Source of the DNA: Deltaproteobacteria bacterium
GTDB lineage: Bacteria; Myxococcota; UBA727; VGSZ01
Reading direction: 5' to 3'
Assembly (NCBI GenBank): GCA_016874845.1
Contig: VGSZ01000033.1
Location: 1-28,990 of the forward strand
DNA: 28,990 bases
Shown here: one piece after another, positions 6,512 to 8,629 of the stretch
How positions within the stretch are numbered: position 1 is the first letter of the stretch
How the letters are laid out: the number at the start of each line of letters is the position of its first letter
Notes under the pieces: model-generated
Seen by the model: the letters and a program-made list of their open reading frames with translations, nothing else
What the model was told of the DNA's origin: nothing
The model's database searches: none
Made by a program: the position numbers and the translations under genes

Positions 6512-8629
6512 TCAAACGAGGGCCGGATTGTCATCGAGCGCCAGCGCACCCCGCGCGTCGGGTTGCCACACCCGCGGCGCCGGCTCGCCCGCCTTGTGGC
6601 CATCGCGCGCAAGCCATGCCTGGTTCTCGGGGTCGGTGCGAAAAGCGATGGCGCGGGCGACGCCGCTCTCGATGCGCGTCGAGAAGTTGCCGGAGAACAG
6701 AAGCTCCTTGAGCGCCGGATCAAGCACATCGAGCTGCTCGATGAGGCCGATGCGCGCGAGGTTGCGCGCCACGTCGAGGCGGCTGTTCTCGGCGGGGTTT
6801 TGCGTGGTGGCGATGGTGTCGGAGCCGAAGTAGATGCGGTCCTTGTTCTTGTGCAGGAACGCCGCCCACCCCGCGAGGTCCTCGCGCATGTACGCATGGA
6901 TGGCGTCCCACGAGATGTCGATGGTGACGTTGGGCGCACGATCCAAAACGTCCTGGAGCGTGTCGAGGTATCCCGGCGGCATCTGCACCGTGTAGCCGAG
7001 GCCGGCGTGAGCCCAGATGATCTCCGTGTCGGGATTGCGATTCGCGTAGGCGATGAACGGCTCGACGTTCTCGCGGTTCGAGGGCAGCAAGAACGTCGCC
7101 AGGTTCGACGTCACCTTGTTGAGGCCCTGCGCCGGCGTGCCGCTGTCGCAATGGATGATGACGGGCATGCCCGTCTGGCCGATGGTGTGGGTCCACGCAT
7201 CCAGGTTCTTGAGCTGGTCCTTGGACATGCGGCTGAGCGGGACCTGGCCACCCATCTCGTGGACCACCTCCTTGGAGAGGTTGGTCTCCCCCCAGATCGC
7301 TTGCAAGGCGCCGCGACCGAGGCCGTAGTCGTCCTCGACGCTGTTGAGGGCGCGCAGGGAATCAAAGACGTTCCGCTCGCTGCCGGCCGCCATGGGATTG
7401 CCGGCGGTGAGGCCGAGGATGTAGTCGCGAGCGATGACATCGCTGCCATGAAGCTGCCGTTCGGCGCACACGAGGGCCGCGTGGTTCTCTGCGTGCCATC
7501 GATCGATGACGACATCGGGATAGTGCAGATCGCAGTCGACGAGCGAGGTGACGAACTCCAGCGTGGCGGTGCCCGGCGGGACCTTCACGCCCATCTTCTG
7601 CTCGAATTCCTCGACGGTCATGGAGAAGGGCGAGGTGACCTGATTGCCGTACCGATCAAACGCGATCTGATCATTGTGGATGACGCCATCCTGGATGACG
7701 GCCTTGCCGAGGATGGTCCGACCGTTTTCGTCGCGTGAAAGATAGTAGCCAGGAATCTGCGTGCCCGACGGCGAGACCGTGGTCCACGTCTGTCCGGGCT
7801 TTGGCGACGGCAGGTGAGGTTCCACGGCGAAGACCACGGTCTTGCCGGACTTCGCCTGCGCGAGCAGGCGATCCACCAACCACCGCGTCTCCTCGGCAGC
7901 GTTCCCGCGCACGCCCTCGGGCATGTTGCCGCCAAACCTCATCTCGTAGGTGCCAAAGCCTCCCTTTGCGCCATGGGTCTCGTGCGAGTGCGTGTCGTGG
8001 ATGGTCTTGGGCAAACGACCAAAGCGCGGATCGATCATGCGCAAGATGGGCAGGAAGCCCGCGCTCGCCAGCGACGCCAGCTTCGGATGGCGCACCAGGA
8101 GGTCCCGCTGCGCCTGCAGCAGCGCCTGGGTCTGGGCTGCGATCTCCCGCGGCACCGGACGACGCATGGCCCGCTGGTAGGCCGCATCAGTGTCGCCCGG
8201 CAGCGGATCTGTTTGGGCGCGCAGGGCCCGCTCCTGTTCGGTGAGCCTGGGTGCCATCCGCAGCGCCGCGATCTGGGCGGTCAGCCCTGGCCGCGCGCTG
8301 TCCACGCCGCGTCGCATGGACTCGACCACGCTCCTGGACACGGGTGAAGGTGCATCCGCTGTCGCACCGTGCGCATCGATGAGGCCGCGGCGCGCCGCAT
8401 CGGCACCCTCGAGCTCGACGGGCGCGGCGCCGCCACGCACGGTGGCGTCAGGCTTCAGGTCAGGCTTCAGGTCAGGCTTCACGTCAGGCTTCACGTCAGG
8501 CTTCACGTCAGGCTTCACGTCAGGCTTCACGTCAGGCTTCACGTCAGGCTTCACGTCAGGCTTCACGTCAGGCTTCACGTGACTGAGGGCGGGCCAACGG
8601 CGCGGGGCGCCCACGATTTTATCCACCAT
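6512..8629 (-). CDS. multidomain protein: N-terminal (VKPD)n repeat, central domain of unknown function, C-terminal metal-dependent amidohydrolase (amidohydrolase_2/TIM-barrel-like)
   Basis: ATG at 8629 with GAGGTGG RBS upstream (the ORF track starts at TTG 8632). C-terminal half has IIHCDSG, AHAGLG, FGSDT and HYPDVVIDRWH motifs typical of amidohydrolase-2 TIM barrels. N-terminus carries VKPDVKPDVKPD... x11. Confidence 0.65.
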   Translation of the reverse strand: MVDKIVGAPRRWPALSHVKPDVKPDVKPDVKPDVKPDVKPDVKPDVKPDVKPDLKPDLKPDATVRGGAAPVELEGADAARRGLIDAHGATADAPSPVSRSVVESMRRGVDSARPGLTAQIAALRMAPRLTEQERALRAQTDPLPGDTDAAYQRAMRRPVPREIAAQTQALLQAQRDLLVRHPKLASLASAGFLPILRMIDPRFGRLPKTIHDTHSHETHGAKGGFGTYEMRFGGNMPEGVRGNAAEETRWLVDRLLAQAKSGKTVVFAVEPHLPSPKPGQTWTTVSPSGTQIPGYYLSRDENGRTILGKAVIQDGVIHNDQIAFDRYGNQVTSPFSMTVEEFEQKMGVKVPPGTATLEFVTSLVDCDLHYPDVVIDRWHAENHAALVCAERQLHGSDVIARDYILGLTAGNPMAAGSERNVFDSLRALNSVEDDYGLGRGALQAIWGETNLSKEVVHEMGGQVPLSRMSKDQLKNLDAWTHTIGQTGMPVIIHCDSGTPAQGLNKVTSNLATFLLPSNRENVEPFIAYANRNPDTEIIWAHAGLGYTVQMPPGYLDTLQDVLDRAPNVTIDISWDAIHAYMREDLAGWAAFLHKNKDRIYFGSDTIATTQNPAENSRLDVARNLARIGLIEQLDVLDPALKELLFSGNFSTRIESGVARAIAFRTDPENQAWLARDGHKAGEPAPRVWQPDARGALALDDNPALV
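8447..8580. repeat. perfect 12-bp tandem repeat GTCAGGCTTCAC/G x ~11 (encodes (VKPD)n on the minus strand)
   Basis: Directly visible: 9 identical GTCAGGCTTCAC units preceded by 2 GTCAGGCTTCAG units, in frame within the 6512..8629 CDS. Confidence 0.9.

Follow-up and report, generated by a model that had tools for sequence, protein, structure and literature searches.

Proline-rich, charged spacers are known from the (Glu-Pro)n/(Lys-Pro)n segments of TonB, the PEVK region of titin and the XPZ region of the streptococcal beta C protein. In-frame coding variable-number tandem repeats (VNTRs) are likewise familiar from bacteria, where they serve multiple-locus VNTR analysis (MLVA) typing. An array resembling both is found in a stretch of 28,990 nucleotides (nt), hereafter the window, comprising positions 1 to 28,990 of contig VGSZ01000033.1 of an uncultured freshwater Deltaproteobacteria bacterium (assembly GCA_016874845.1; Myxococcota). 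Here, eleven 12-nt units lie in frame near the 5' end of a minus-strand gene for a 705-amino-acid (aa) protein with an enzyme-like C-terminal module. The array is probably a genuine and very young coding minisatellite, born by slippage in a translated, nearly unconstrained N-terminal leader and near-neutral in its effect.

The 12-nt array and its reading frame

Direct reading and pattern search reveal 11 head-to-tail units (Table 1). In gene orientation, units 1-9 read GTGAAGCCTGAC (8471..8578(-)), and units 10-11, forming the 3' part, read CTGAAGCCTGAC (8447..8470(-)); on the plus strand, these correspond to nine copies of GTCAGGCTTCAC and two of GTCAGGCTTCAG, as a previous reading of the sequence alone (the sequence-only reading) had listed them. 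Translation in frame gives (VKPD)9(LKPD)2 at residues 18-61 of the protein, counted from the ATG. The position of the array in frame near the 5' end of the gene is thereby confirmed by reading, pattern search and translation, and the translation supports the charged, proline-rich spacer that had been proposed. The span of 8447-8580 reported previously holds for the units and the start, yet its end takes in 2 nt of partial periodicity, as whole units stop at 8578.

Tandem Repeats Finder (TRF) scored the array (8446..8580, period 12, 11.2 copies, 98% matches, score 256) as by far the strongest in the window, and the exactly periodic stretch covers 110 nt (8471..8580). Allowing up to one mismatch, a search for the unit recovered these 11 copies and no others in the window, against a chance expectation of 0.09 per window, and none of 100 shuffles gave 11 copies. 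With 11 near-identical head-to-tail units, far above chance, in 132 nt that are a multiple of three and lie inside the open reading frame (ORF) downstream of its start, the element is a tandem repeat and a coding minisatellite. Its two CTG units are found only at this locus and adjoin unique flank. Other classes of repeat were set aside: the array has no spacers, as clustered regularly interspaced short palindromic repeats (CRISPR) would, and it lies in frame within a conserved ORF, which argues against iterons or binding sites. Nor is it a phase-variation switch of the kind seen at contingency loci, where repeat gain or loss shifts the frame or the promoter spacing, since slippage by a multiple of three keeps the frame. 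A literature search for 'VKPD' repeats yielded only hits in which those letters have an unrelated meaning, and exact look-up of the 705-aa and 706-aa products gave no record.

Contigs of the same population were found through the neighbouring genes, namely the upstream ORF 8750..9766(-) and the downstream neighbour. Look-up by the upstream neighbour identified contigs from several other samples belonging to the same nearly clonal population. One of them, L009, comes from a different sample; its alignment to the window extends over 6875 nt, is free of gaps and shows 5 mismatches, so that it has 11 units too, and it carries a called gene of equal 705-aa length. Contigs L010, L011 and L012 run from the unique upstream flank into the array and end there, and L013 ends 5 nt short of it; in total, four of the five population contigs end at or in the array. 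Look-ups by the downstream neighbour located the population in at least eight samples, with no further contig reaching the array. A perfect 110-nt repeat is unresolvable by k-mers shorter than about 110 in de Bruijn assemblers. The contig breaks are therefore no sign of polymorphism, because repeat length relative to the assembler k explains them, and such a repeat stands as a warning that it breaks short-read assemblies.

It could be argued that the array is an assembly artefact or a foreign insertion, with reads of another organism threaded in or a copy number set by an assembler loop, as the same 12-nt unit is arrayed in unrelated metagenome contigs (L005/L007/L008 and L006), always at contig ends. 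Yet those contigs are otherwise without similarity to the window, whereas the array here is 132 nt long, in frame and flanked on both sides by DNA colinear with orthologous genes that lack it; its private CTG units are joined to unique flank, L009 independently has 11 units, and three further contigs enter the array from the unique upstream flank. Because the independent population contigs, the colinear flanks and the private CTG units agree, the array is genuine DNA and an assembly artefact is very unlikely; an artefact or foreign insertion is, on balance, scarcely credible.

The ORF 6512..8632(-) has a GC content of 0.68/0.46/0.84 by codon position, the coding signature of a genome of ~70% GC. 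When the window is compared with two orthologous loci (L001 and L014), similarity starts just before the Shine-Dalgarno-like GAGGTGG and continues into ATG GTG GAY AAR ATC G, encoding MVDKI(V/A)G, while the DNA further upstream is unrelated in the three (a PAS sensor kinase in L001, an IS91-type transposase in L014 and a 338-aa ORF in the window). From the ATG to the PSPVS motif, all three lineages have 53 codons once one array unit is kept, even though about one-third of the leader nucleotides and ~60% of its codons differ among them. The placement of the start upstream of the array is borne out by this conservation of the Shine-Dalgarno-like sequence, the ATG and the first seven codons despite unrelated upstream DNA, and the ATG at 8629 is very probably the start codon. 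Alternatively, the array could lie untranslated in a 5' leader, with the true start at a downstream GTG or ATG. This is quite unlikely: it fits the absence of an excess of synonymous change in the leader and the presence of a GTG at codon 65, beyond the array but short of the first strongly conserved motif; however, no Shine-Dalgarno-like sequence precedes that GTG, and gene callers took the upstream ATG on L001, L009 and L014. Moreover, the ribosome-binding motif, the ATG and seven conserved codons stand exactly where the similarity to L001 and L014 begins, and the leader length of 53 codons is kept in three lineages despite divergence, apart from the added 120 nt, a multiple of three. A sigma-70-like promoter was not found, and the sigma-70 model is uninformative for this phylum.

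Origin, variation and likely effect of the array

A first homologue search was swamped by low-complexity matches to the repeat, whereas a repeat-free query returned seven word-sharing relatives. Full-length homologues comprise five from the word search and two from cluster look-up, and none carries the array; a metagenome scan with protein patterns found no relative, and a genome scan found only the known Myxococcota metagenome-assembled genome. Three close orthologues (P0001, P0183 and P0184; 93-94% identical, 672 aa) lack the array and hold a single, non-repeated DV(K/R)xTD at its site, which reads ...IDVRRTDRAGD... (GAC GTC AGG CGC ACC GAC) in P0001 and P0183 and ...IDVKHTDNAGG... (GAC GTC AAG CAC ACC GAC) in P0184. 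As the leader is of equal length across lineages when one unit is kept, the comparison shows, at the level of sequence, one ancestral unit plus ten added ones (+120 nt, +40 aa); the lengths of 705 and 672 aa fit +40 aa once a C-terminus shorter by 7 residues is counted. The proline codon CCT is used in 11 of 11 cases in the array but in only 3 of 43 elsewhere in the gene. Together with the perfect units and the absence of the array from three ~93%-identical orthologues, this codon bias upholds the very recent expansion that had been suggested before.

In this lineage, the ancestral D-V-(K/R)-x-T-D would have become GTG AAG CCT GAC, which replication slippage or unequal recombination would then have amplified to 11 copies. 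The array probably grew in more than one step, because the G>C change (Val>Leu) is common to the two 3'-most units and was hence itself duplicated. Taken together, these features point to an array built up step by step, by slippage or unequal exchange, once this lineage had separated from its ~93%-identical relatives.

The segment in which this occurred appears to be permissive. With the array set aside, the leader shares 55-65% identity with that of the close orthologues, compared with 92-93% for the remainder of the protein. Its substitutions are distributed over the codon positions as 13/17/17, with 6 synonymous and 26 non-synonymous changes, whereas in the rest of the gene the figures are 26/17/71, with 63 synonymous and 41 non-synonymous changes. 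A more distant orthologue, P0005, has an independent N-terminal insertion, PSLQAPSLQAPPLQAPS, which at the DNA level (L016 5683..5738) is an in-frame 15-nt array of 3.7 copies with 92% matches, TCCCTCCAGGCACCA, of PSLQAP type and at a position unlike that of the window array; elsewhere in the relatives, no perfect arrays were found. A first AlphaFold2 (AF2) model, built from 6 sequences and poor overall (mean predicted local distance difference test, pLDDT, 47), gave pLDDT 25-34 for the leader and 25-45 for residues 1-159, and was rejected as evidence on fold or disorder.

The product of the array, a 44-residue polyampholyte with 25% proline and strictly alternating charge, would form an extended, flexible spacer separating the conserved N-terminal heptapeptide MVDKIVG from the rest of the protein. 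Gain or loss of units would alter the length of this spacer and keep the reading phase, because the unit is a multiple of three. By inspection only, with no predictor run, neither a Sec/Tat nor a lipoprotein signal was recognised, as the N-terminus MVDKIVGAPRRWPALSH is followed by the charged array and contains no hydrophobic stretch. The functional consequence of the array is most likely near-neutral, and the array would be tolerated because the leader is unconstrained rather than selected as a switch.

The sequence-only reading had regarded the array as likely length-polymorphic. This is not supported by the copy-number comparison, which is limited to two spanning assemblies, the window and L009, with 11 units in each. 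Sequence variants do occur in the array: three of the five mismatches in L009 form an adjacent CGT>AAA cluster at the boundary of units 1 and 2, turning the product into VKPE-KKPD, and L010, which has a single mismatch over 2005 nt, shows G where unit 10 of the window starts with C, reflecting either a tenth GTG-type unit or a single-nucleotide polymorphism. Among these near-clonal population contigs, 2 of 5-6 variant events thus fall in an array that makes up 1.7% of aligned bases (P ~0.003-0.004), an enrichment that fits an unstable or recombining array and also consensus errors in a repeat. Length polymorphism is seen elsewhere in the population, as L002 differs from the window over 4.25 kb by a single 21-nt indel at 4300..4320.

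In line with that VNTR-like view, a functional VNTR or contingency locus could be proposed, in which frequent slippage would vary the spacer length and thereby tune, across the population, how far the enzyme module reaches, its targeting or its secretion. A run of 110 perfectly periodic nt is a slippage-prone kind of substrate, the variants are enriched within the array, the L010 sequence, whose unit 10 starts with G rather than the C of the window, could be an allele with at least ten GTG units, and the contigs of four samples break at the array. However, both spanning assemblies have exactly 11 units although they come from different samples, the contig breaks are accounted for by repeat length, the protein shows no signal peptide or surface-protein features on sequence inspection, a unit that is a multiple of three gives no on/off switching, and the orthologues function without the array. 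Such a role is therefore unlikely, although copy-number polymorphism of the array remains plausible and the array could serve to tell strains apart in this lake population.

Several points weigh against a young, near-neutral minisatellite in a translated leader. No copy-number difference was seen between the two spanning assemblies, and instability is only inferred, and the variants within the array could be assembly or consensus errors in the repeat. The leader is presumably disordered, judged mainly from composition (25% Pro, strictly alternating Lys/Asp) and the low-confidence AF2 model, and the near-neutrality of the array is an assumption. Finally, the leader carries no signature of purifying selection. 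For this reason, its coding status is argued from the conserved Shine-Dalgarno/ATG region, the first seven codons and the preservation of frame, and not from the substitution pattern.

An exact two-unit search of the metagenome collection found GTGAAGCCTGAC in four unrelated contigs, each with a long perfect array of it at one end (Table 1). In L005, L007 and L008 (~45% GC), a small ORF carries the array-encoded (VKPD)n in its C-terminal portion; in L006 (69% GC), the product is either a C-terminal (VKPD)n or, on the opposite strand, an N-terminal (QASR)n, and by reading of the sequence a LexA-like ORF adjoins. A link between the window and these contigs was rejected, as no other nucleotide or protein similarity was found. 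It could be speculated that (VKPD)n is a functional module recruited convergently or horizontally, either as a leader for targeting or export or, like PEVK, as a spring of tunable length. At least two other unrelated contexts (L005/L007/L008 and L006) have the array unit with the same codons, the rare CCT among them, and the position of the array in the leader of an IS91-associated, effector-like module that is otherwise C-terminal in giant proteins could point the same way. Recruitment is, however, distinctly improbable. In many unrelated proteins, such as a Ser/Thr kinase with a PEGA domain, (V/L/I/A)KPD runs are linkers. The recurrence of GTGAAGCCTGAC in unrelated contigs is regarded as convergence or chance, given how common XKPD repeats are and the very large size of the collection.

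Host protein and genomic context

The protein carrying the array had been called an amidohydrolase fusion protein. The first part of that description holds at the superfamily level, as suggested by sequence profiles, and the term fusion is loose, since the module is one barrel with large insertions and the first ~200 aa are specific to the orthologues; a modular C-terminal enzyme domain that follows a short orthologue-specific region and a presumably disordered leader describes the architecture better. The Pfam family Amidohydro_2 (PF04909) matches residues 485-649 only, and marginally so, with 26.7 bits against a gathering cut-off of 26.4. Among ten matching relatives, eight score 29.4-38.3 bits and two lie just under the cut-off (25.6 and 26.1), and three further relatives that were tested gave no PF04909 match. 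A scan of the protein against NCBIfam found no match, and neither the protein nor its neighbours matched the defence-system and phage families of PADLOC and PHROG. No significant hit came from PDB sequence searches, and no characterised close relative was found.

The module shows the (beta/alpha)8 TIM-barrel fold. An exhaustive search of representatives with residues 201-706 returned 142 relatives, the best of which hold the whole ~500-aa module at the C-terminus of proteins of 1,170-2,880 aa. Annotation in the N-terminal regions of these large relatives is confined to pentapeptide repeats in one and DUF4781 in another, and homologues of the first 200 residues of the window protein occur only among five to seven orthologues. 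The metal/catalytic set of the superfamily comprises HxH after strand 1, His after strands 5 and 6 and Asp after strand 8. In 706-aa numbering, H494/D496 (IIHCD), H542 (WAHAG) and D605 (FGSD) are invariant in 17 sequences; the candidate HxH ligands H215-x-H217 (HDTHSH) are kept in close relatives, are not invariant and fall within residues 1-34 of the model, a segment of low confidence. The end of the module, 6515..6600(-) (residues ~668-690), carries an invariant W-L-x7-G-x3-P motif, ENQAWLARDGHKAGEPAPRVW, which the family profile aligns weakly to the Trp-cage/exendin-4 peptides 2jof, 2ll5 and 5niq (E 0.36-0.47), and this tail may possibly be a Trp-cage-like cap that occurs naturally throughout the family. 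As an uncharacterised family, the host proteins may merit more attention than the repeat.

The gene region has a GC content of 0.64-0.68, compared with 0.71-0.77 in its surroundings, and the gene neighbours differ in every lineage, the orthologues on L001, L003 and L016 lying in other contexts. Directly upstream of the L014 orthologue is a transposase with Zn_Tnp_IS91 and Y2_Tnp domains, and a remnant of such a transposase lies upstream of the gene in the window; in both, the gene thus stands next to an IS91-type Y2 transposase or its remnant, as expected of IS91-family cargo. An inverted repeat, which provides a second, inverted copy of the remnant, brackets a 7.5-kb segment that includes the gene, and a 100-nt direct repeat occurs in three copies (2032..2131, 9873..9972 and 11666..11765). 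From this context, the gene appears to be mobile cargo. The array is explained without this status, and the transposase remnant is context and no part of the array.

Gene remnants flank the locus as well: 6050..6280(+) encodes the 76-aa C-terminus of an S-adenosylhomocysteine hydrolase (AdoHcyase), called at the same position in L002, L009 and L017-L022, and 10293..10838(+) encodes the C-terminal PALP/ACT part of a threonine dehydratase, with the PALP remnant called on L009. The upstream 338-aa ORF, 8750..9766(-), looks composite, with a GFSQG nucleophile-elbow-like motif in mid-protein and, in its last ~30 residues, a weak match below the cut-off to the copper type II monooxygenase C-terminal domain (E 8e-4). 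A second near-perfect tandem array, AAGAGCAAGCCGG (18815..18895; 13-nt unit, 6.2 copies, 98% matches), closely follows the part of the ORF 17622..20015(+) that encodes the IstB (IS21 helper ATPase) domain and could represent multiple terminal repeats of an IS21-family end. Further along the window, two eukaryote-like genes stand side by side (24031..26544(-) and 27628..28989(-)), one resembling major vault protein (MVP shoulder E 9e-23, plus a vault repeat) and the other encoding a PAD-type protein-arginine deiminase (E 1e-64).

Table 1 Features of the array locus and related arrays on other contigs (coordinates are those of the window unless a contig is named).
Feature	Coordinates	Strand	Remarks
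Coding sequence of the 705-aa protein	6512..8629	-	ATG 8629..8627, stop 6514..6512; from ORF, codon-position GC and orthologues P0001, P0183, P0184, P0003-P0005
Shine-Dalgarno-like GAGGTGG	8633..8639	-	6 nt (from GAGG) before the ATG; kept in L001 and L014
N-terminal leader, residues 1-93, up to PSPVS	8351..8629	-	Fast-evolving; holds the array; presumably disordered
12-nt tandem array, (VKPD)9(LKPD)2	8447..8578	-	Direct reading, TRF, ORF translation, pattern search
Orthologue-specific, predicted helical region, residues ~94-199	8033..8350	-	Kept among Myxococcota-type orthologues only
Conserved ~500-aa module: divergent amidohydrolase-superfamily TIM barrel with large insertions and Trp-cage-like C-terminal motif	6515..8032	-	
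IS91-family (Y2) transposase 3'-end remnant	10068..10364	-	Upstream of the gene, same strand; 60% identity over 65 aa to residues 435-499 of the L014 transposase, E 1e-23
Inverted-repeat arm, ~310 nt	9968..10275	.	Holds the transposase remnant; 94% complementary over 244 nt to the other arm, 2165..2474
Second inverted-repeat arm	2165..2474	.	
GTGAAGCCTGAC arrays on other contigs	L005 6713..6831, L007 6593..6704, L008 8977..9113, L006 11592..11637		

Comparison with known systems

The array on its own matters little, being a fresh instance of a well-known type of feature. It does provide a clean, datable case of the birth of a low-complexity linker, in which one tetrapeptide has given rise to 11 units and orthologues of 93% identity lack the array. 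As for the module that follows it, the Amidohydro_2 TIM-barrel hydrolases and decarboxylases BB4693 (3irs), COG3618 (4dlf), LigI (4d8l), ACMSD and IDCase are only 11-13% identical to it. Unlike these enzymes, the module has ~270 extra residues, consisting of beta-rich insertions and the C-terminal Trp-cage-like tail, and is joined to long unannotated N-terminal regions in its relatives.

Like the in-frame coding VNTRs of bacteria, the array has perfect head-to-tail units, with a length that is a multiple of three, within an ORF, and it shares with them a slippage-born, lineage-specific character and variant units at the array edge. It differs from them in having 11 units in both assemblies, with no copy-number variation seen. 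Moreover, classic variable coding repeats are mostly found in surface or secreted proteins, whereas the host protein lacks both a signal peptide and a surface anchor.

The (V/L/I/A)KPD linkers of P0012 (the Ser/Thr kinase with a PEGA domain), P0006, P0010 and P0022 have the same tetrapeptide period and the residues VKPD, LKPD, IKPD and AKPD. However, their units are heterogeneous, as in arrays that are older or under drift, and they connect folded domains, unlike the present array at the extreme N-terminus. Finally, the array resembles the spacers of TonB, PEVK and XPZ in that proline, valine, lysine and an acidic residue recur with a short period and the charges alternate, from which an extended, flexible, polyproline II-like spacer would be expected. 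Those spacers are old and degenerate at the DNA level, and their function has been demonstrated, whereas the array described here is perfect at the DNA level, dates back a few mutational steps and is missing from orthologues of ~93% identity.

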